Virus record (IMG/VR): IMGVR_UViG_2880384115_000007
DNA from: a virus
Taxonomy: Duplodnaviria; Heunggongvirae; Uroviricota; Caudoviricetes
Direction: 5' to 3' (one strand)
Length of the DNA stretch: 39,952 nucleotides
Shown here: positions 3,159 through 34,517 of the stretch, one piece after another
Layout: each line of letters starts with the position of its first letter
How positions within the stretch are numbered: position 1 is the first letter of the stretch
Notes under the pieces: generated by a model
Told to the model about the DNA's origin: nothing
What the model saw: the letters and a program-made list of their open reading frames with translations, nothing else
The model's database searches: none
Translations under genes and position numbers: made by a program

Positions 3159-5621
3159 TCAATTCCCTGTTAATTGCAAAACTTGCTCTTCCAGCTTTTT
3201 AACCCTGCGTCTCATCATCGCAGATTCCAGAATCAGAGCCTCTTCATAACGGATACCGTAACATTCACCAGCCTCGACGGCTTCGCGTACCAGAACCTTT
3301 GTCTGTATAAGTGGGTAAACTCCTGCAGAATGCTCTTCTTCCGTCACATCCCTGTATTCTGCCGGGGTCTCATTCCACTTGTCATAACAGATAAATGCCA
3401 GTCGTGACACATCTATGCCTTCATTCTGAAATACACTGATAACATGCTGCGCAACTGCACCAAAGTGCCATCTTGCTCCGTCTTTACCTTTCACTTCGAT
3501 CCTGTCAAGGTACTGGTATGAAACCCATTCCACTCTTTCCCATGCGTCCAGTATTTTCTCATCAATAACCTCTGGAGCAGTCTTGAAACGCGCATCGGAC
3601 AGCACCGTAAACGCTGACTGGGTAAATCCCCCCGACCATGCACGACCAGCCAACCCAAGAGAATAAGTATTCGTTGTCGATGGTGTCATGGCTGAATCAG
3701 AAAACTGTATATATTCTGAATTTCCAGTAGATATTCGAATATTTCCATTTATTAGCGACATAGTGCCTTTAGTATTATCACTATTGAATAATTTCAATTG
3801 CGAACTTATACCGCCTCCCACAGCCAGAGATACATCGCCTTCAGCAAGCATTCTGAATTTATCTGCAGAAACAAGCGTCTGGTTAGCAAGGTTAAAATAT
3901 TTAACCCACCATTCAAAATGCCCTGACATAGTCCCAACGTACTGACCAAGCGCAGGGACGTGAACAACATTGCTATTTGTAGTGCCGTCTATACTGGAAA
4001 TACCAGTCACCGCTGATGCAGAACTCAGAATATTATTTCTGTCACCCGGATGTTTAATTTCAACAAAGTTCCTGATACACCCTTCCTCGAAGGTAACCAC
4101 GCCGGAAGAACTATACATGGGGAATATTGACGCATAATTACTGCGTGCAGCATCTAAGAAACGAATGGTTGTAGATGTCTGCAGATCTCCTGATTCATTT
4201 TTCCCATCACACCCAGTCATTAGAATATTACTGGCAATATTATTATTTCCCTGAACGGTGACGCCGTGCGCCTGCTTTGCGTCCGATTCAGAGTAATCAA
4301 CCAGCACATCCGAAATCAGGTTACCAGTCCCCTTGCCAACAACTACTGCGGCGTATTTTGGGTTGTTAGCCATTACACTGCTAATGATATTATTCGTTGG
4401 GGCAGTTTCCGTCTCAGTTCCATTGTAAACAACGTGCTGACACTCTTCACCAATAACATTGCTGACAATGTTATATTTTGCTGCTGTTTTAAGTTCCACT
4501 GCACCAAACTGAGGATAATTTCTGGCTATCACACCATCAATTAGCGTATTTTGCGATGAATCAAAAAGCACACAACCTGCTTTTTTATTATTTGCGAACC
4601 CTAAATACTCTCCTCTTATATCTCTAACAATGTAACCTGACGGAATACCATTATCCGGATAAGCGATCAAGCTAAATCCTGGTCCTCGCGTATTTGTAAA
4701 TCTGATATTTTTAACCGATACATCATGGCCACCTGAAAATGACACCTGGTGTCCCTGCACACTATCATCTGATTTATTTCCCATAATTGTTAGCGTACTA
4801 AGCATGCCACCATCGGGCATGTTAAAAACCAGATGATTACCATCTCTGTCATACTGTTTTATCGTTCCCCCACCTGTTCCGTACAAGCCACAACGTGAAA
4901 GAGAAACTAAAGATGTATTGAATACCCCTTCCGGAACAAAAACACTGCTAAACGAATGTAATGATTTTGTAAAAGCATCCTTGTTATCATTTAAGATTCC
5001 ATTTTGAGCTCCAAAATCCTTAATGCTGACACCATCACGCATCTTATCCTGGAACGTTCTGTATACCGCTCCAGAACCATACTGAATAAACCAACCAAAA
5101 CCACCAATAACTCCGGCGATTGCAGCATCGACATAATTACGCATTGAGCGATTATTTACAGCGTCCTGCTCAAGTGATGGATCGGCAAGGTTAGATATTC
5201 TGTTTTGCTTTGCATCGTAATATTTTGCAAGCAAAGATGGTTTCATCAATGCACGTCTGAACCACCCAAAACATCGCTGGATCAGCATCGTCAGGTAGTC
5301 AAATGCATCCTCATGAACTTCGGGGAAAAATTTTCCCTGATTGCGAAGATCAGTCTCCTGCACCACATCAAGCACACGCTCTATCGTGATTCGCCAGCCA
5401 GCAGCAAGCGGCGACGGAAGAACCACTGCACCGCCACTATAAGTTCCCGCCCCTGTTACCGTATAACCAGCATCCAGCACTAGTTTTGTAACGTTACCGT
5501 TAAGGTCAGACACCTGAACAACCAGGTCGGATTTTTTGAAAATACGGAAGGTATACGGAAATGATGTCGTAACGCCGTTACCTGTGTATTCGTTGTGGTC
5601 AACTTCGGTTGAGACCGTCAT
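3159..5621 (-). CDS. Tailspike / receptor-binding depolymerase with C-terminal self-cleaving chaperone domain
   Basis: 820 aa; N-terminal ~130 aa resemble the T7 gp17-type tail-fibre anchor; central Gly/Asn/Ser/Thr-rich repetitive region typical of beta-helix depolymerases; C-terminus (SDARFKT...WHFGAVAQHV) resembles peptidase S74 intramolecular chaperone domains; centre and C-terminus look AT-rich by eye. Confidence 0.8.
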   Translation of the reverse strand: MTVSTEVDHNEYTGNGVTTSFPYTFRIFKKSDLVVQVSDLNGNVTKLVLDAGYTVTGAGTYSGGAVVLPSPLAAGWRITIERVLDVVQETDLRNQGKFFPEVHEDAFDYLTMLIQRCFGWFRRALMKPSLLAKYYDAKQNRISNLADPSLEQDAVNNRSMRNYVDAAIAGVIGGFGWFIQYGSGAVYRTFQDKMRDGVSIKDFGAQNGILNDNKDAFTKSLHSFSSVFVPEGVFNTSLVSLSRCGLYGTGGGTIKQYDRDGNHLVFNMPDGGMLSTLTIMGNKSDDSVQGHQVSFSGGHDVSVKNIRFTNTRGPGFSLIAYPDNGIPSGYIVRDIRGEYLGFANNKKAGCVLFDSSQNTLIDGVIARNYPQFGAVELKTAAKYNIVSNVIGEECQHVVYNGTETETAPTNNIISSVMANNPKYAAVVVGKGTGNLISDVLVDYSESDAKQAHGVTVQGNNNIASNILMTGCDGKNESGDLQTSTTIRFLDAARSNYASIFPMYSSSGVVTFEEGCIRNFVEIKHPGDRNNILSSASAVTGISSIDGTTNSNVVHVPALGQYVGTMSGHFEWWVKYFNLANQTLVSADKFRMLAEGDVSLAVGGGISSQLKLFNSDNTKGTMSLINGNIRISTGNSEYIQFSDSAMTPSTTNTYSLGLAGRAWSGGFTQSAFTVLSDARFKTAPEVIDEKILDAWERVEWVSYQYLDRIEVKGKDGARWHFGAVAQHVISVFQNEGIDVSRLAFICYDKWNETPAEYRDVTEEEHSAGVYPLIQTKVLVREAVEAGECYGIRYEEALILESAMMRRRVKKLEEQVLQLTGN

Positions 5622-5724: not shown

Positions 5725-5741
5725 ATTACCTTTCAGGTAAT
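5725..5741. promoter_or_regulatory. Dyad ATTACCTTTCAGGTAAT (TTACC-N5-GGTAA), candidate operator
   Basis: Perfect 7-3-7 inverted repeat between divergent tailspike gene and LexA-box gene; same dyad recurs at 10 other intergenic sites. Confidence 0.6.
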
Positions 5742-5797: not shown

Positions 5798-5817
5798 ATT
5801 GCATGGAGAAGATTAAG

Positions 5818-6075
5818 ATGCAGCAGTATCACTATCCACTGGAAGAGGGATTTACCGAAAGGATTCACACGCCGGGAGGCGTCAGGTCACTGGTGGAGGG
5901 ATCGCACTTGATGAAATTACTCCGGGATCTCGATAAGGATGGATTTAATGTCGATGGCCCACTTGCCGAACTGACTGCACTGATTAACTACGTCACCAGC
6001 TCACAGATGTCTATGCAGGATCTGCAAACACATCTCGACTATTGTGCCGAACAATTACGAAAACAAACCAGATAA
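5818..6075 (+). CDS. Small LexA-controlled protein; candidate SOS-inducible antirepressor
   Basis: Start placed at second ATG (5818), which has a GGAG RBS; the 85-aa product aligns with the C-terminal ~65 aa of the Bro-N protein at 6391..7101; LexA box sits in its promoter. Confidence 0.5.
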   Translation: MQQYHYPLEEGFTERIHTPGGVRSLVEGSHLMKLLRDLDKDGFNVDGPLAELTALINYVTSSQMSMQDLQTHLDYCAEQLRKQTR

Positions 6076-6211
6076 GATTTGAAATTACCAATAGGAGTGC
6101 TTATATTTACCTTTGCAGTAAATTTACATCGCACTCCTCTTGTGCCATAGTAATCGGGCACTGGCAAAATCCAGTGCCGGGATTGGCGTCCCGGGTTACT
6201 AAGTGGCGCAT

Positions 6212-6235
6212 ACCACGCCAGACGTGGTTTTTTTA
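6212..6235 (+). terminator. Rho-independent terminator
   Basis: Stem ACCACG / CGTGGT with 5-nt loop followed by seven T; ends a structured untranslated stretch 6076..6235. Confidence 0.55.
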
Positions 6236-6390
6236 TGCGTTAAGCACAGCTATATCCGAATTATGGTGGGCTGGGCAGGGGTCCGAAAGGACGCCGGTAC
6301 CACTTAGGCCGGTACGCCAACCTTGTCCAGTTCACCACCAGTAATTGGCGTTGCGGTGGTGATTAAAATCACTAAGTGGAGATAACCACC

Positions 6391-7101
6391 ATGGCTAATG
6401 CTCAAACTGCCATCTTCAAATTTGAATCTGTTAACCCTATCCGTTCCATCATTATCGATGGCCAACCATGGTTTGTAGCCCAAGACGTTTGTAGTGCGCT
6501 GCGTATCCAAAACGTCACCCAAGCACTTGAAAAACTGGATGATGATGAAAGGTCTATGTTCAACATAGGGCATGAACATCGTGCAATTTTTGACAGCCGA
6601 GTAAAAGAGATCAACATTATCTCCGAGTCAGGCCTCTACACACTGATCCTCCGCTGCCGCGACGCAGTGACACCAGGCACTATCCCCTACCGCTTTCGTA
6701 AATGGGTTACAGGTGAGGTTCTTCCTCAGATCCGCCGCACCGGAAGTTACATTAAAAACTCGCTCCCGCAGGAAGAACGCATAAAGATGGTTGCCGACCA
6801 GGTAGCCAACGCCACAGCATCAGCAATGATGCAGGCAATGAAGATAGAGAACAAAACCTACAGTGCCCCACTGAAGCCCGGCTACCGTAGCCTGATTCAT
6901 TCTCCGTCTGGTGTTCTCGGCCTGACGGAGAACTCACTGCTGATGAATCTGCTGAACCAGTTACAGGACGACGGGCACGACGTATCGGGCGCGGCGGCGG
7001 AGCTGACCACCATGTTCTGCTACATCGTTGGTGTGAGCAAATGCCTGCGTGATATCCAGACGCACGCGGAGTACATCAACGACAAGGCAGGGTTCTTCTG
7101 A
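6391..7101 (+). CDS. Bro-N domain protein (antirepressor-like)
   Basis: Start at ATG 6391 with GGAG RBS (track start 6376 is GTG); N-terminus has Bro-N hallmarks (FKFESVNPIRSIIIDGQPWFVAQDV...LDDDER...FRKWVTGEVLPQIRRTGSY); C-terminal domain homologous to the 5818..6075 product. Confidence 0.75.
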   Translation: MANAQTAIFKFESVNPIRSIIIDGQPWFVAQDVCSALRIQNVTQALEKLDDDERSMFNIGHEHRAIFDSRVKEINIISESGLYTLILRCRDAVTPGTIPYRFRKWVTGEVLPQIRRTGSYIKNSLPQEERIKMVADQVANATASAMMQAMKIENKTYSAPLKPGYRSLIHSPSGVLGLTENSLLMNLLNQLQDDGHDVSGAAAELTTMFCYIVGVSKCLRDIQTHAEYINDKAGFF

Positions 7102-7173
7102 CGGGCGGCGGCACAGGGATGTGCCTTTAAATAATTCTGTACAGATTGCAGACTGGGGGTGAATAGCGTACTA

Positions 7174-7188
7174 TTACCTCAAGGGTAA
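7174..7188. promoter_or_regulatory. TTACC-N5-GGTAA dyad upstream of the moron gene
   Basis: TTACCTCAAGGGTAA about 60 bp upstream of ATG 7248. Confidence 0.5.
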
Positions 7189-7247
7189 GAAAGCATTTTT
7201 AATCTTCCCTTCAAAACGCGTCCTGTAGCCAAACATGGGAGGACGAA

Positions 7248-7880
7248 ATGAGAACAAATACAACAAGAAAAGCGATGCCATACATTATCCCAGAAGCAGA
7301 TTTCGATAGAAAACTGAACATGTCTGAGAAGAACACTAGTCACACCGAAAGCTACTTAGCGAAAGGTGTGGTTGATTTCGTTCTTCCGGGATTCACAACA
7401 CCTTATGGTTATCGCCTTGTAAAATCTTGTAATGGCGATCATTACAGAATGATTACTACCAGCGATACTCCAGAAACGGTGTATGCGGTTAAGTTAATCT
7501 TTCGGGAAGATATCGTCGAAGCCAAAAGAACATGTACGCAGATCATGGTATGGCGTACGCCTAATGTTATTCATGACCGTGCTGTTCATGGTTTGCCTCA
7601 GATTTTTTTTCAGTTCTTCCTAGAGCAATATGCGATCGTTGTATCTGATGAGCAACAAACAATCGATGGGAGAAGATTCTGGGAAAGAATGATTTCTTGG
7701 GCTATAAACACCCCAGGATATAATGTATACGTTTCAGATGGCTCTGAAGAAGATAGACCTCTTAGCTTCATGGCATCATGGGATGATTTCTATAGCCAGT
7801 GGGCTGATTTCTGTTGGGGCAGTGATAAAGATGTGCATACCCACAGACTACTGGTTATAAGCAAAGATAAACTGCATTAA
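7248..7880 (+). CDS. Hypothetical protein, AT-rich moron
   Basis: 210-aa ORF with GGGAGG RBS and its own terminator; visibly more AT-rich than flanking phage genes; no recognisable motifs, no TM or signal peptide. Confidence 0.6.
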   Translation: MRTNTTRKAMPYIIPEADFDRKLNMSEKNTSHTESYLAKGVVDFVLPGFTTPYGYRLVKSCNGDHYRMITTSDTPETVYAVKLIFREDIVEAKRTCTQIMVWRTPNVIHDRAVHGLPQIFFQFFLEQYAIVVSDEQQTIDGRRFWERMISWAINTPGYNVYVSDGSEEDRPLSFMASWDDFYSQWADFCWGSDKDVHTHRLLVISKDKLH

Positions 7881-7882
7881 TA

Positions 7883-7907
7883 GAAGCCCGCAGCGCGGGC
7901 TTTTTTG
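7883..7907 (+). terminator. Rho-independent terminator
   Basis: GCCCGC-agc-GCGGGC stem-loop followed by six T, directly after the stop of 7248..7880. Confidence 0.7.
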
Positions 7908-7978
7908 TGGACGAAACAAAAGTCAGTGCTACACTCATTGACGCCACATTGAGGTGGCTTATAGATGGAAATTTCACA

Positions 7979-8140
7979 ATGAAAAAAGCATTTGCTGCAC
8001 TGTTCGTTTTGTTGTCTCTGGTAGCTTCAACTCAGGCCTTTGCCGGTCGTTGTCAGCACGACAGCGATACTGCCGCTGACGGCTCCCGCTGCGGTGGGCG
8101 TTCTGCGGATTCCCGCCCGGGCGGCGGTGGCATTCGTTAA
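7979..8140 (+). CDS. Small secreted Cys-containing peptide (hypothetical)
   Basis: In-frame ATG at 7979 gives 53 aa with signal peptide MKKAFAALFVLLSLVASTQAFA; sigma70-like promoter TTGACG-16-TATAGA at 7938..7965; below the usual ORF size cutoff. Confidence 0.35.
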   Translation: MKKAFAALFVLLSLVASTQAFAGRCQHDSDTAADGSRCGGRSADSRPGGGGIR

Positions 8141-8163
8141 AAACAAGGCCGCGAAAGCGGCCT

Positions 8164-8663: not shown

Positions 8664-11138
8664 TTATTGCGGAGTGACATCCTGAGGTCGCCACCAGTAT
8701 GTCTGGTTAAACTCTTTCTTCGAACGTTGCTCCATTTTACGCAAATAGCCTGGTGAAAAATACTCCTGCATCTGGTTAAAGATCATGTGATCAAGAGCTG
8801 CCTTCAAGTACCAGAGATTCGCACCTGGCATCAGCCCTTTCCCAAGTTTCACCAGATCACCACCAGTCTGCTCGTTCTTCCCTTCCACAGCATTTAATGG
8901 TATGCCCTGAGCTATCTTCACTACGTCATCAACCAGGCCAGCTACCGGGCCAAGCATCGACGCCAGCGCGCCGCTTCCGTACCTAGTGTGATCTGACAAT
9001 AAAAAGTCACCGTAAAGGCCAAGACCACCACCTTTCAGTAGAGCACCAAGCCAAAATTTAGCAGCATCTTCTCCTGTCATCTCGCGAGGATTACGACCAG
9101 ACGCAAGGTCGTTAAGTTGCTGCGACAAAGCGCCAAGAATGGTCGTACTGGCAATAAACGTCGCAATATATGCCGCACGCCCACCAGCAGACGGCATACC
9201 CATAGCGCGTGACCAGTGACGCATAACCACCGAGATAGGGAACGATTTAAACAGGAAAACACTTCTCGTTAATTCACCTTTCCATGTTCCACGCTGAATA
9301 CCAGAACCGGTTATCAGTTGCTCACGTGCTCCCGGTGTAATAACAGCCATATCAACTTCTTCAGTTACGGCACCGAGCAGTTTACGCATTGCCTCAAATT
9401 TCACGCGTTCAGGCTCACCAAGATGTTTAACTGCTGAATCAGGGATACGCATAATGCTTTCCGGTGTCAGCATCGTATTATTACCGTTCCCCCAGTCCTC
9501 CTGTTGCGCCAGCTTCCATACGCTCCAGTCTGTGTCAGTAATCCCTTTACTTTTCAGGATACGAAAATCAGAGTCATCGAGGCTACGAAGGTCTGGTGTC
9601 CGTGACACTACTTCTCCCAGGCTTCCCATCATGGTTACGCCATAGGCGCGCTTGTGCGCATCTGACCATGCTGTAAGCCCACTGGCACGCATTACCGCCG
9701 TTGCCGCCCAACGAGACACAGACGGCCCCATATTATCCATCGCCCAGCGGTTAACGCTGCCAAGTAGAGATTCCATCGCCAGGCCAGCGCGGCGCGCCCG
9801 CGCAAGCTCAGTACGGTTCGTTGGGTCCATAGCTTCAAGCTGGTTGCGGAATAACTGGTTCATTGGAAGGTTGGTCACCTTCGCAGACAGATACATGGTT
9901 CCAAGATCAGAGAACGATGATAGCAACGCGGATCCGAGTCTGCTGGCAACCAGCCAGTTGCGGATATTGTCAGACCATCGCGCGATGTGCGGATTCGCTA
10001 CAGGCTGTGTCTTTCCGGAAATAAAGTTGTACAGATTCTCTGTGTTGTTCGCCAGCCGCTCGACTTTACCGGTTTTACTCGGGTTAGCTGTTGCCGTTTC
10101 TGCCTTCACCTGATCAAGAAGAGAGCGGAAAACATGATCGGGGTTTGGGCCATATGTTTCCACCAGTGCAATATCTTTACTGATACCTTCCAGGTAACCG
10201 ACCATGATTTCCCATAGAGAGCGATCGCCATAAAGTTGCTGATATTGCAGATATGAATCTGCATCTTTGAAATGTATCTGTCGTGATGCATTACCACGGT
10301 TAGCACGTGCGCCGGAAATTCGCATGCCGGTATCAGTAAGCTTATTCAGCCCACCAGTGGCGATTGTGTTATAAGCTTCTCCAAGAAATGCAGACAACTC
10401 GGCATCGTTCATCAGTTGTCCATCGGCTCGGATATAATATTTGCGATCCAGCTTACCTATAACATCGCTAACCCACTTATCCTTTGATACCGCCCCAACC
10501 TTTTCCATAGAATGATGTTGAGGGATCCCCCAGTTTTCGAGATAGCCAATGTCCCCACCAGCATCATTAAACCGGCGGCGCAGTAGCTCTGTCACTTCTC
10601 TCCACGCCTTAGCACCTTTTCTTGCTTTAGCATTGCCAGTATTTTGCCCCCGCATTTCATATACCAGGTCACGTACGCCCGCTTCATCTTCAAACAGACC
10701 AAAAAAGCGAGGATCAACTGCTTCGAATGCCTCCTGCAATTGACTCAATGCATAATCACGGGTGGCTTTTGTTCTGGATTCAACAGAGAGGAAATTCGAT
10801 TTACCGTCTGCATTAAAAGCAATAGTACGGTTAAGAGCGCCAAGTTTCCCATCAGCCCCTTGATAGCTATTGATAAATTTATCCAATCTCTGACGTGCGG
10901 CTATAGTGAGGGCCACACGACGTTTCTTTAATGCCGCTTCTCGCTGTAATTCTTCAGATGCCAATTGTGCTGCACGATATAGCCGCTCTGATTCGGAAAG
11001 TTGTCTCCACGACATCGGGTCATCACGAGCAATAGAGCGCATATTTCGATAAATGCGGTCTTCAATGTTCTGTATTTCTCGCGCCGTTAACGTGCGCTGC
11101 GCCGCCTGCTGGACCGCTTGTATACATTCCTGTCTCAT
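8664..11138 (-). CDS. Large internal virion / DNA-ejection protein
   Basis: 824-aa ORF last in a run of three large genes after the tail tubular genes, matching the internal-core gene positions of T7/epsilon15-type podoviruses. Confidence 0.55.
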   Translation of the reverse strand: MRQECIQAVQQAAQRTLTAREIQNIEDRIYRNMRSIARDDPMSWRQLSESERLYRAAQLASEELQREAALKKRRVALTIAARQRLDKFINSYQGADGKLGALNRTIAFNADGKSNFLSVESRTKATRDYALSQLQEAFEAVDPRFFGLFEDEAGVRDLVYEMRGQNTGNAKARKGAKAWREVTELLRRRFNDAGGDIGYLENWGIPQHHSMEKVGAVSKDKWVSDVIGKLDRKYYIRADGQLMNDAELSAFLGEAYNTIATGGLNKLTDTGMRISGARANRGNASRQIHFKDADSYLQYQQLYGDRSLWEIMVGYLEGISKDIALVETYGPNPDHVFRSLLDQVKAETATANPSKTGKVERLANNTENLYNFISGKTQPVANPHIARWSDNIRNWLVASRLGSALLSSFSDLGTMYLSAKVTNLPMNQLFRNQLEAMDPTNRTELARARRAGLAMESLLGSVNRWAMDNMGPSVSRWAATAVMRASGLTAWSDAHKRAYGVTMMGSLGEVVSRTPDLRSLDDSDFRILKSKGITDTDWSVWKLAQQEDWGNGNNTMLTPESIMRIPDSAVKHLGEPERVKFEAMRKLLGAVTEEVDMAVITPGAREQLITGSGIQRGTWKGELTRSVFLFKSFPISVVMRHWSRAMGMPSAGGRAAYIATFIASTTILGALSQQLNDLASGRNPREMTGEDAAKFWLGALLKGGGLGLYGDFLLSDHTRYGSGALASMLGPVAGLVDDVVKIAQGIPLNAVEGKNEQTGGDLVKLGKGLMPGANLWYLKAALDHMIFNQMQEYFSPGYLRKMEQRSKKEFNQTYWWRPQDVTPQ

Positions 11139-25069: not shown

Positions 25070-25146
25070 GTGGTATTAGCTCAGTTGGACAGAGCAACCG
25101 CCTTCTAAGCGGTTGGTCGCAGGTTCGAATCCTGCATGCCACGCCA
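25070..25146 (+). tRNA. tRNA-Arg (anticodon UCU)
   Basis: 77-nt cloverleaf folded by hand: 7-bp acceptor stem (one GU), D-arm GCTC/GAGC, anticodon stem ACCGC/GCGGT with loop CTTCTAA (anticodon TCT), T-arm GCAGG-TTCGAAT-CCTGC, 3' CCA encoded. Confidence 0.85.
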
Positions 25147-31335: not shown

Positions 31336-31412
31336 TTACCTCTGAGGTAATTAAAAACCACATAAGACACGAAATCAATAGATTTTAGAATATTTTATTA
31401 CCTAACAGGTAA
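31336..31412. promoter_or_regulatory. Promoter/operator cassette with two TTACC-N5-GGTAA dyads and conserved box
   Basis: Dyads at 31336..31350 and 31398..31412; box AAAAACCACATA at 31353..31364; TCGACA-like hexamer just upstream in gene orientation. Confidence 0.55.
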
Positions 31413-33413: not shown

Positions 33414-33644
33414 TCATGAGTAGAAGAAGTATGCCAGTTCTGCTTTTGAGCGCAACCATTGTCTTGTTTTACAGGCTTTAAAAAGCCCATTCATCAATAC
33501 TTTACCTGGCATTTTGCGCTTACCTGTTAAGTGAGTCTGGATATAGTGACTCGTCGTTCCGGCTTCCTGTGCGAAGGCTTCACGCTCATCCGGAGTAAGT
33601 GCAAGCCAGTGCTTTTTGAAATCGAAATGTCCGTTATCGCTCAT
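33414..33644 (-). CDS. Cro-like small regulator (putative)
   Basis: 76 aa, divergent from the CI-like gene across a 154-bp region with three operator dyads, followed by a stem-loop and the O/P genes; call rests on position, no sequence match to known Cro. Confidence 0.45.
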   Translation of the reverse strand: MSDNGHFDFKKHWLALTPDEREAFAQEAGTTSHYIQTHLTGKRKMPGKVLMNGLFKACKTRQWLRSKAELAYFFYS

Positions 33645-33680: not shown

Positions 33681-33743
33681 TCACCCATAAGGTAACAAAA
33701 ATCAAGGATAGTTACCTATGAGGTGCATTTACCCGTTGGGTAA
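33681..33743. promoter_or_regulatory. Tripartite operator region between cI-like and cro-like genes
   Basis: Three dyads with identical 5-bp spacing: TCACC-N5-GGTAA (33681..33695), TTACC-N5-GGTGC (33712..33726), TTACC-N5-GGTAA (33729..33743). Confidence 0.6.
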
Positions 33744-33798: not shown

Positions 33799-34383
33799 AT
33801 GAAAAGTATCCAGGACGTCCGCAGGCAAAATCTCAACGACTTGATCGACCGTGAATTCAATGGTGTTCAGACGCGGATGGCAGAAAAACTTGGAACTCAG
33901 GCAAATCTGGTAAACCGCTGGGCTCTTGGCAAGAAGGTTATCGGCGACCAGGTTGCGCGAAAAATTGAAGCTGCCGCCAATAAACCACGTAACTGGCTTG
34001 ATATCGATCGCTCGCTTTCTCAGGAAGGTTTTCAGCCTGTCGGCCCAAGCGACATTGGTCAGCTGGCGGCTCACAACCTGGAACGCTGGATGAGCGAAAG
34101 CCGCGACCTTTCAACACAGGGAAAACTTCACCGCGCATCCGGCGTCGCCCAGGTGACAATCAGCCGCCTGTTAAACAATGAGGTCAGCGTTTCCATTTCC
34201 ACCCTGGAGAATGTTGCATCCGCATTCGGGCGTCACGGCTATGAATTACTGATTCACCCGCACGACCCTGCGACCATCAACTATGACCGCTCGCGCTACG
34301 CATTGTTACCCGAAACCGAGAAAGCAAAGATCGAAAGTTATATTGAATTTGTCATCAACCAGAACGAAAAAAACAAACAATAA
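33799..34383 (+). CDS. CI-like prophage repressor, two HTH domains, no S24 peptidase domain
   Basis: N-terminus (MKSIQDVRRQNLNDLIDREFNGVQTRMAEKLGTQANLVNRWALGKK) resembles phage CI-repressor HTH domains; second HTH-like segment (VAQVTISRLLNNEVSVSISTLENVA); no Ala-Gly / Ser...Lys autocleavage module. Confidence 0.65.
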   Translation: MKSIQDVRRQNLNDLIDREFNGVQTRMAEKLGTQANLVNRWALGKKVIGDQVARKIEAAANKPRNWLDIDRSLSQEGFQPVGPSDIGQLAAHNLERWMSESRDLSTQGKLHRASGVAQVTISRLLNNEVSVSISTLENVASAFGRHGYELLIHPHDPATINYDRSRYALLPETEKAKIESYIEFVINQNEKNKQ

Positions 34384-34440: not shown

Positions 34441-34517
34441 TTACCTAATGGGTAATTTTTTTAACTCATATCTATTGACATCAAACCAAATACGCATAAT
34501 TATTACCTCAACGGTAA
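34441..34517 (+). promoter_or_regulatory. PL-like early promoter with two operator dyads
   Basis: Dyads at 34441..34455 and 34503..34517 bracket a consensus -35 TTGACA (34475..34480); the second dyad sits where the -10/+1 is expected. Confidence 0.55.

Follow-up and report, generated by a model that had tools for sequence, protein, structure and literature searches.

Positions 7,102 to 7,907 of the 39,952-nucleotide (nt) viral sequence IMGVR_UViG_2880384115_000007 (the whole stretch analyzed here, hereafter "the window") contain a 210-amino-acid (210-aa) gene that occupies an exchangeable cargo slot in an Escherichia coli prophage. The slot is bounded on its left by one member of a family of short dyads repeated across the prophage and on its right by an intrinsic terminator. 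The gene itself evolves under strong purifying selection, belongs to a large protein family spread over phages and bacterial chromosomes, and encodes a product whose predicted structure distantly resembles the GNAT acyltransferase fold. We tentatively favor, with somewhat less than even confidence, the interpretation that it encodes a GNAT-like effector made on derepression of the prophage, for host takeover or counterdefense.

The 210-aa gene is exchangeable cargo in a conserved slot

The window is an epsilon15/phiV10-type E. coli prophage, belonging to the genus Uetakevirus. The region is 100% identical to that of E. coli strain 4/0, in which the element adjoins yfgI and carries a T7 gp14-like core protein, an SLT-domain internal protein, a tailspike, and a lysis cassette. 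An initial annotation, made from the sequence letters alone, had described the open reading frame (ORF) at 7248..7880 as an AT-rich moron of unknown function in a typical cargo location, with a strong ribosome-binding site (RBS). Each of these features was borne out. The GC content of the ORF is 40.9% (37.4% at third codon positions) against 49.4% for the whole window, which places it in the lowest 1% of the window's 633-bp segments; only the part of the tailspike gene encoding its C terminus, near 4340-5000, is lower. The gene lies between the tailspike gene (3159..5621, minus strand) and an internal virion protein gene (8664..11138, minus strand). Its Shine-Dalgarno (SD) sequence is strong and close to the start codon (Table 1), and GGAGGA is retained ahead of the start codon in homologs from many contexts. 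The coding sequence (CDS) ends in a double stop, TAATAG, with the terminator hairpin beginning 2 nt later. In comparisons with homologs, the nonsynonymous substitution rate (dN) was 0.11-0.12 and the synonymous rate (dS) was at least 1.7 (saturated), giving a dN/dS ratio of <0.1. By these measures, we take 7248..7880 to be a real gene under strong purifying selection.

A megablast search with 7102-7907 as the query revealed how the gene is housed. Of the 5426 complete E. coli genomes compared, 335 matched query bases 1-87 at 88-100% identity, whatever cargo followed; the whole stretch, including the 210-aa gene, was present in 92 of these 335 slot-bearing genomes. The right border, at ~7885, coincides with the terminator stem, and the shared sequence runs on from there through a gene for a 53-aa peptide. 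Between the borders we read at least three kinds of alternative cargo (loci L002, L003, L135-L139, and L144): a small ORF with a YafO-family toxin, a 69-aa ORF with a 251- or 287-aa ORF (STEC1585, A0 34/86), and a DUF4760 protein (G5, 13081). The alternative cargos had no PADLOC match (E up to 0.01) and no PDB sequence match, and a literature search on the protein accession and on DUF4760 returned nothing useful. The initial annotation had credited the gene with its own operator and terminator. Both signals are real; however, they are not private to the gene, since both borders are common to variants with other cargos and are thus properties of the slot. The cargo itself would contribute only the leader, the RBS, and the CDS. 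With variable presence at a fixed site, deviant GC content, and its own transcription signals, the gene retains its description as a compositionally foreign cargo gene in a transcription unit of its own.

A prophage-wide operator family and a candidate promoter suggest silence in the lysogen

The dyad at the left border of the slot (7174-7188) has arms of only 5 bp and folds weakly (z = -1.9). Its significance lies in its repetition: the window holds 14 such dyads (9 exact), whereas 0.66 would be expected and the richest of 100 shuffled sequences held 3, which puts the count far beyond chance. The full 15-bp palindrome often reads ATTACCT-N3-AGGTAAT, and most copies are intergenic. Three dyads lie between the divergent genes 33414..33644 (Cro-like, helix-turn-helix [HTH]) and 33799..34383; one of these, near 33709, carries two mismatches and is outside the 14. 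Two pairs are spaced by 62 bp: the dyads at 34441 and 34503 bracket a TTGACA promoter reading into the recombination genes, and those at 31336 and 31398 lie inside the replication operon. Two dyads precede the small terminase gene, and one is in the head region. The dyad at 6107 directly follows the predicted promoter that opens the transcription unit of the antirepressor gene ant, immediately upstream of the slot, and that at 5726 precedes a 90-aa ORF. The copies at 5494, 10183, and 33681 have a single mismatch, and the first two of these fall within coding sequence.

The product of 33799..34383 is 100% identical to the repressors of phage ZX5 (vB_EcoP_ZX5; ORF21) and phage phiV10. When ZX5 ORF21 was overexpressed, transcription of the endolysin and holin genes fell by more than 99.9% (PMC9782041). 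The ZX5 genome also carries 14 dyads, including one in the corresponding slot next to its antirepressor gene, on the downstream side; lambdoid phage LLS, whose repressor is different, carries a single exact dyad in 42.9 kb. Given the 14 sites, their regulatory placement, the ZX5 pattern, and the identity of the repressor, we read the dyad as the probable operator for the phiV10/ZX5-type repressor. We also observed an exact dyad 49-72 nt upstream of homologs of the 210-aa gene in LLS and in two other phage backgrounds (proteins ~70% identical; Table 1). Either the operator traveled with the gene or the dyad may have a role tied to it; a repressor scan for the phage at one of these loci (L098) gave only identical E. 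coli repressors.

In some slot variants the first cargo ORF begins ~27 nt past the operator. Because this leaves no room for a promoter, the promoter must sit in the conserved left flank, where TTGCAG-17-TACTAT is the only candidate; transcription from it would start inside the operator. If the dyad is indeed the operator of the main repressor, the 210-aa gene is probably silent in a stable lysogen. The initial annotation had proposed a defense, antidefense, or lysogenic-conversion function. Probable silence in the lysogen weakens lysogenic conversion and constitutive prophage defense and favors a role at infection or induction.

At the other end of the slot, the terminator folds as a 10-pair hairpin (-15.3 kcal/mol, z = -3.4), and only 1 of 200 shuffled sequences folds as well; a consensus terminator scan did not report 7882-7906. 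In other phage backgrounds, every homolog examined has its own GC hairpin and T-run, with covarying stems.

The ribosome-binding site is predicted to be masked by an upstream hairpin

The leader carried by the cargo may add a second level of control, at translation. Across clades, a pyrimidine block complementary to the SD sequence lies 8-15 nt upstream of GGAGG, in three pairing registers (CGTCC/GGACG, ACTCC/GGAG, and TTGTCC/GGACAA). The SD sequence was fully paired upstream in 23 of 43 homolog leaders, compared with 37 of 205 other GGAG-bearing ORFs at the same loci (Fisher p = 6e-6, a value that overstates independence because the family sequences are mutually related). In the RNAalifold consensus of 12 leaders, the helix comprised 5 bp, of which one pair varied in a compensatory manner (UA in 8 leaders, CG in 4), another was wobble compatible, and none was broken. 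The 5' leader matched no Rfam family.

The predicted fold resembles GNAT acyltransferases

The 210-aa protein had no match in Pfam or NCBIfam and matched no model in PADLOC-DB 2.0 (E up to 0.1), in line with the earlier remark that the protein carries no recognizable motif; the only PHROGs hit was phrog_1349, of "unknown function." The AF2 model had a mean predicted local distance difference test score (pLDDT) of 81.6 and a predicted template modeling score (pTM) of 0.78. When it was compared with the PDB by Foldseek, the top 50 matches were nearly all GNATs (best E = 0.02). The structural matches included the GNAT toxins AtaT, KacT, and TacT3. Rv1916/ICL2, whose GNAT-like domain binds acetyl-CoA as a regulator only, was also among the top structural matches. 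Foldseek against BFVD returned proteins annotated as Acyl-CoA N-acyltransferase or NAT_SF at E = 3e-4 to 7e-4, together with uncharacterized relatives such as one from the jumbo phage Atu_ph07 (TM 0.69). Taken together, the three structure searches point, weakly, to a GNAT acyltransferase fold for the modeled protein. The homology search and structure prediction recommended at the outset thus yielded a resemblance in fold but no sequence-level homology to known families.

The positions conserved in the family are N29, Y79, Q98, W102, R103, D134, Q137, T138, G141, F144, W145, Y161, W190, G191, and I204, of which W102-R103, D134, and Q137-T138 persist down to ~25% identity. The protein has an isoelectric point (pI) of 6.0, and the family as a whole is mildly acidic (median pI, ~6).

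The family spans phages, toxin-antitoxin islands, and lone chromosomal genes

Direct searches recovered close relatives in 63 clusters at 90% identity; every one came from Enterobacterales and was labeled either "hypothetical" or "phage protein." Searching 1.84 billion representatives of 50%-identity clusters with a profile extended the family to 924 representatives with E values of 1e-3 or lower, including 283 with values of 1e-10 or lower, and nearly all are of ~200 aa. Repeating the search with a 97-sequence alignment added almost no members, the search being one that relies on a word index.

Family members are carried by temperate phages, by phages that are probably virulent, and by toxin-antitoxin islands, and others are lone chromosomal genes. 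In phage LLS, the homolog follows Rz/Rz1; in a lambda-like prophage of Yersinia pestis NCTC5923, a 63%-identical copy inside the tail cluster is flanked by the L/K tail genes on one side and an Arc-like gene on the other (L007 6001-6633); in a Symbiopectobacterium prophage, the copy is just downstream of a Mnt/Arc-type gene on the same strand; and in other prophages it lies between baseplate hub and wedge genes or two genes past the major tail protein gene. Lone copies are found between ppc and metF in Xenorhabdus, between a regulator and a nitroreductase gene in Enterobacter, between a kinase gene and pagP in Proteus, and among phosphotransferase system (PTS) genes in Photorhabdus. More distant members reside in phage-like contigs with arrays of small ORFs of unknown function and no recognizable lysogeny genes in the stretches examined; some phage-like metagenomic contigs carry tandem paralogs and adjoining HNH homing-endonuclease genes (L128 1587-2807; L131 4341-5741). 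Comparison of 67 genomic and 48 viral loci (~115 in all) revealed no conserved neighbor or partner gene. Judged from these contexts, the 210-aa gene is a mobile, single-gene, functional cassette.

These contexts also bear on whether the gene might be a decaying ORF or might code for a routine phage protein of the structural or housekeeping kind, an explanation to which we give hardly any weight. Its position between virion genes, and that of some homologs inside tail or baseplate clusters, would fit a structural protein. However, prophages that are nearly identical elsewhere differ in whether they carry the gene, the family occupies at least five positions in five phage architectures as well as nonphage chromosomal sites, a terminator accompanies it in every context, and the low dN/dS ratio is not that of a decaying frame. 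With no homology to such proteins detected, we do not regard the product as a structural or housekeeping phage protein.

Several members are tied to toxin-antitoxin genes. One relative is an N-terminal fusion to SRA_ScoMcrA with an overlapping Phd/YefM antitoxin gene upstream (L126 4823-6080); the contig of this relative holds two further Phd-like genes. In another relative, an MqsA N-terminal zinc domain replaces the family N terminus, and a third shares its island with HipA, TacA, and a reverse transcriptase. Such links raise the alternative that the product is a prophage defense or superinfection-exclusion toxin: a toxic GNAT-like effector held very low in the lysogen through partial repression and the leader hairpin, and unleashed when an incoming phage perturbs the cell, so that abortive infection would protect the lysogen population. 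Consistent with this idea are the polymorphic hotspot nature of the slot, which elsewhere holds a YafO toxin-antitoxin pair, the antitoxin-associated relatives just described, the GNAT toxins among the structural matches, and the solitary copies kept on chromosomes of several genera. Nevertheless, we consider it unlikely. Neither the 210-aa protein nor the alternative cargos matched PADLOC. The 146-nt upstream gap contains no antitoxin-like ORF (none at all in 7102-7247), a Phd/YefM gene precedes only the SRA-fused relative, and no partner recurs among the ~115 loci. In addition, the operator geometry predicts silence in the lysogen, and the family is frequent in virulent-looking phage contigs.

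A derepressed early-lytic effector is the preferred reading

In our preferred, tentative reading, the slot would provide a promoter overlapped by a single repressor operator, along with the intrinsic terminator, and the cargo would bring a strong RBS masked by an upstream anti-SD hairpin. In a stable lysogen, the repressor would be present and transcription off. In a fresh infection or upon induction, with the repressor absent or inactivated, the gene would be transcribed along with the neighboring antirepressor gene, translation still being damped by the SD-sequestering hairpin. The product, a soluble and mildly acidic protein predicted to adopt a divergent version of the GNAT (acyl-CoA N-acyltransferase-like) fold, would act in the early lytic program by acyl or aminoacyl transfer to a host or competitor target, or by binding such a ligand, and would be harmful enough to need double control. 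That it may be harmful if freely made is suggested by the toxin-antitoxin links, the YafO toxin in the same slot, and the probable double control. A use in lytic development is suggested by the phage-like contigs without recognized lysogeny genes, together with the repressor operator here.

Several observations weigh against this reading. Binding of the repressor to 7174-7188 is itself part of the interpretation, and operators that stand alone may repress only in part. The promoter candidate was picked by eye: a promoter scan did not list 7146..7174, which matches the consensus poorly. The position of the Symbiopectobacterium copy could allow expression in the lysogen, and the lone copies among housekeeping genes in several genera suggest a use to the cell itself. 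As for enzymatic activity, 97 diverse members compared with Pfam at E up to 10 hit no Acetyltransf_* model and no recurring family, and sequence and profile searches of the PDB gave only noise (de novo TIM barrels and ROCK kinases). By order of elements, the canonical CoA loop corresponds to 112-117, AVHGLP (family AxxGxA/P), and lacks Q/R; its G115 is 59% conserved, and close relatives have Pro at the last position of the loop, a register set by element order alone. The best-conserved motif, SDxxQTxxGxRFW (133-145), instead falls at the beta5-alpha4 junction, away from that loop; the mapping of motifs to elements is our own reading of the AF2 secondary structure. Because the CoA loop appears degenerate and the top motif is elsewhere, cofactor binding cannot be assumed.

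The protein might accordingly be a noncatalytic binder on a GNAT-like scaffold that inhibits or sponges a host protein or a signaling or cofactor molecule, a reading we hold to be rather doubtful. It would accommodate the degenerate loop, the predominance of aromatic residues among the 10 most conserved positions (6 of 10: Y79, W102, F144, W145, Y161, and W190) with D134 as the sole conserved acidic one, a pI of ~6, and the regulatory acetyl-CoA-binding domain of Rv1916/ICL2 among the matches. Conversely, the SDxxQTxxGxRFW loop at a helix start has the look of an enzyme element that binds a ligand or phosphate, and W102-R103, D134, and Q137-T138 are retained even at such low identity.

If the product is an active effector, the family would be a widespread, so far unannotated enzyme class in phage-host conflict, without a Pfam entry. 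We also entertain a broader conjecture, which we regard as improbable at present: the ~900 representatives may form a new, sequence-orphan branch of the GNAT fold, made up of toxic transferases that ride on phages, conjugative elements, and toxin-antitoxin islands, are doubly controlled, and are fired at infection or induction against host functions or defenses, possibly with a non-CoA donor or with a nucleic acid, an immune signaling molecule, or some other unusual target. An active effector would also imply that prophages of the epsilon15/phiV10 type, common among pathogenic E. coli, maintain a repressor-gated, plug-and-play cargo site beside their antirepressor gene. The slot is itself of practical use, since alternative cargos, which may share a biological purpose, can be recovered systematically by its conserved borders. 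The 210-aa gene is a worthwhile experimental target, though unexceptional among uncharacterized phage accessory genes.

Neighboring island and other features

The island between the tailspike and internal virion protein genes is immI-like and on the plus strand. From its RNA elements and gene order, we read it as a podovirus prophage immI region of the P1/P7 type upstream of a BRO-N antirepressor gene (Table 1); the ZX5 homolog of Ant acts as an antirepressor (PMC9782041). The 90-aa ORF at the head of the island resembles the C terminus of the Ant protein encoded 300 bp downstream. On the far side of the slot, the 53-aa gene is kept downstream of every slot variant. It has a promoter-like sequence ahead of it, and we noticed no repressor dyad before it (7981..8140), signals by which its expression in the lysogen is more plausible than that of the 210-aa gene. 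Beyond it, the stretch with the 98- and 57-aa ORFs differs from strain 4/0, marking another variable spot. A tRNA-Arg gene (anticodon TCT; 25070-25146, plus strand) lies inside the head and packaging region of the prophage.

Table 1. Features of the cargo slot, its regulators, and the surrounding island (positions in the window unless a locus is named)
Feature	Position	Strand	Details
Left flank of cargo slot	7102..7188	+	Hairpin after ant (7110-7125), candidate promoter, operator
Candidate sigma-70 promoter	7146..7174	+	TTGCAG-17 nt-TACTAT; putative, by eye
Probable operator	7174..7188	.	TTACCTCAAGGGTAA; TTACC-N5-GGTAA, one of 14 prophage copies
Exchangeable cassette (5' leader, RBS, CDS)	7189..7884	+	Homology to other variants stops at 7188 and resumes at ~7885
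Predicted leader hairpin(s) sequestering SD	7203..7245	+	TCTTCCC (7203-7209) or CGTCCT (7219-7224) pairs with GGGAGGACG (7237-7245)
Shine-Dalgarno sequence	7237-7243	+	GGGAGGA, 4 nt 5' of ATG
CDS, 210 aa	7248..7880	+	ATG start; phrog_1349 (unknown function); predicted divergent GNAT-like fold
Intrinsic terminator, slot right border	7882..7906	+	Stem 7882-7891/7895-7904, core GCCCGC/GCGGGC, T6 7901-7906
Conserved slot borders			Left ...GTACTATTACCNNNNNGGTAA; right AGCCCGCNNNGCGGGCTTTTTTGTGGACGAAAC
Dyads of the operator family (14)	5494, 5726, 6107, 7174, 10183, 24733, 27875, 27893, 31336, 31398, 33681, 33729, 34441, 34503
Exact dyads upstream of homologs	L004 5914-5928; L005 5937-5951; L098 4935-4949
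Main repressor of the prophage, 194 aa	33799..34383	+	Presumed operator binder; flanked by dyads 33681, 33729, 34441, 34503
90-aa ORF	5803-6075	+	phrog_450 and C-terminal part of antirepressor families; own operator at 5726
a1/b1 targets of C4 RNA	6145-6197	+	Rfam
isrK-like RNA	6158-6234	+	Rfam, 67.7 bits
C4 antisense RNA	6259-6342	+	Rfam, 66 bits
BRO-N antirepressor Ant	6376..7101	+	Pfam Bro-N E = 1.2e-19; phrog_130; directly upstream of slot
Promoter-like sequence	~7937-7964	+	TTGACG-16-TATAGA, ahead of 53-aa gene
53-aa secreted peptide gene	7981..8140	+	phrog_14503 "membrane associated protein"; signal peptide; Gly/Arg/Asp-rich tail
Strong hairpin terminator	8146-8163	-	Ends the 98-/57-aa ORF pair
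Small hydrophobic ORF, 98 aa	8172-8468	-	phrog_3075, unknown
Small hydrophobic ORF, 57 aa	8481-8654	-	After internal virion gene

Comparison with known systems

The predicted order of elements, beta1-alpha1-alpha2-beta2-4-alpha3-beta5-alpha4-beta6-beta7, is compatible with GNAT/NAT_SF proteins. The family differs from them in its low scores, an extra strand and helix, and an apparently degenerate CoA loop, and its signature, VWR ... SDxxQTxxGxRFW ... WG, is not a GNAT motif. The type II GNAT toxins (TacT, AtaT, KacT, and ItaT) are of a similar fold class, and the family has toxin-antitoxin links elsewhere; however, there is no sequence similarity to these toxins and no adjacent ribbon-helix-helix (RHH) antitoxin of the TacA/AtaR type, either here or in most loci.

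The Mom protein of phage Mu offers the nearest functional analogy. As an accessory gene of ~210-230 aa that lies outside the core phage modules under its own regulated promoter, mom resembles the 210-aa gene, and Mom adopts the GNAT fold that the 210-aa protein is predicted to resemble. Mom modifies a DNA adenine by means of Gly-tRNA(Gly); residues R111, S124, D149, and R151 are essential or reduce its activity when changed, and the protein has an HTH-like insertion (PMC13219725). Its translation requires Com, annotated as a translational activator of Mom in the Mu record, and the start of the gene studied here is apparently masked by a hairpin. The 210-aa protein could be a Mom-like nucleic acid modifier that acylates phage DNA, or host tRNA or DNA, as an antirestriction measure and whose toxicity, as with Mom, calls for tight regulation. 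The GNAT-like fold, the probably repressor-gated transcription, the masked start, and the relative fused to SRA_ScoMcrA, a reader of modified DNA, would all suit such an enzyme. The differences make this quite improbable. Mom has a pI of 9.9, a basic cleft, and the HTH-like insertion, against the mildly acidic median of the family; control is by a late activator in Mu and by a lysogenic-repressor operator here; and there is no com-like partner gene. Homology to Mu Mom was itself rejected, since hhalign of the family profile against Mom gave a probability of 0.2% and BLASTP found no significant match.

Phage P1 has a C1 repressor with many dispersed operators and an immI region consisting of the C4 antisense RNA, icd, and ant. 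As in P1, operators here are scattered before separate units, including ant, and C4 RNA and a1/b1 lie upstream of ant; the dispersal of the operators over the genome recalls P1 C1 operators or mycobacteriophage stoperators. The present element differs in its 15-17 bp palindrome, its 194-aa HTH repressor unrelated to C1, and its nature as an integrating podovirus. Classical morons, such as lambda bor and lom and the HK97 morons, are typically expressed from the repressed prophage. The 210-aa gene is like them in being a compositionally distinct single gene with a terminator, set between conserved genes and absent from close relatives. In contrast to them, it has a repressor operator at its candidate promoter, which argues against expression from the repressed prophage.

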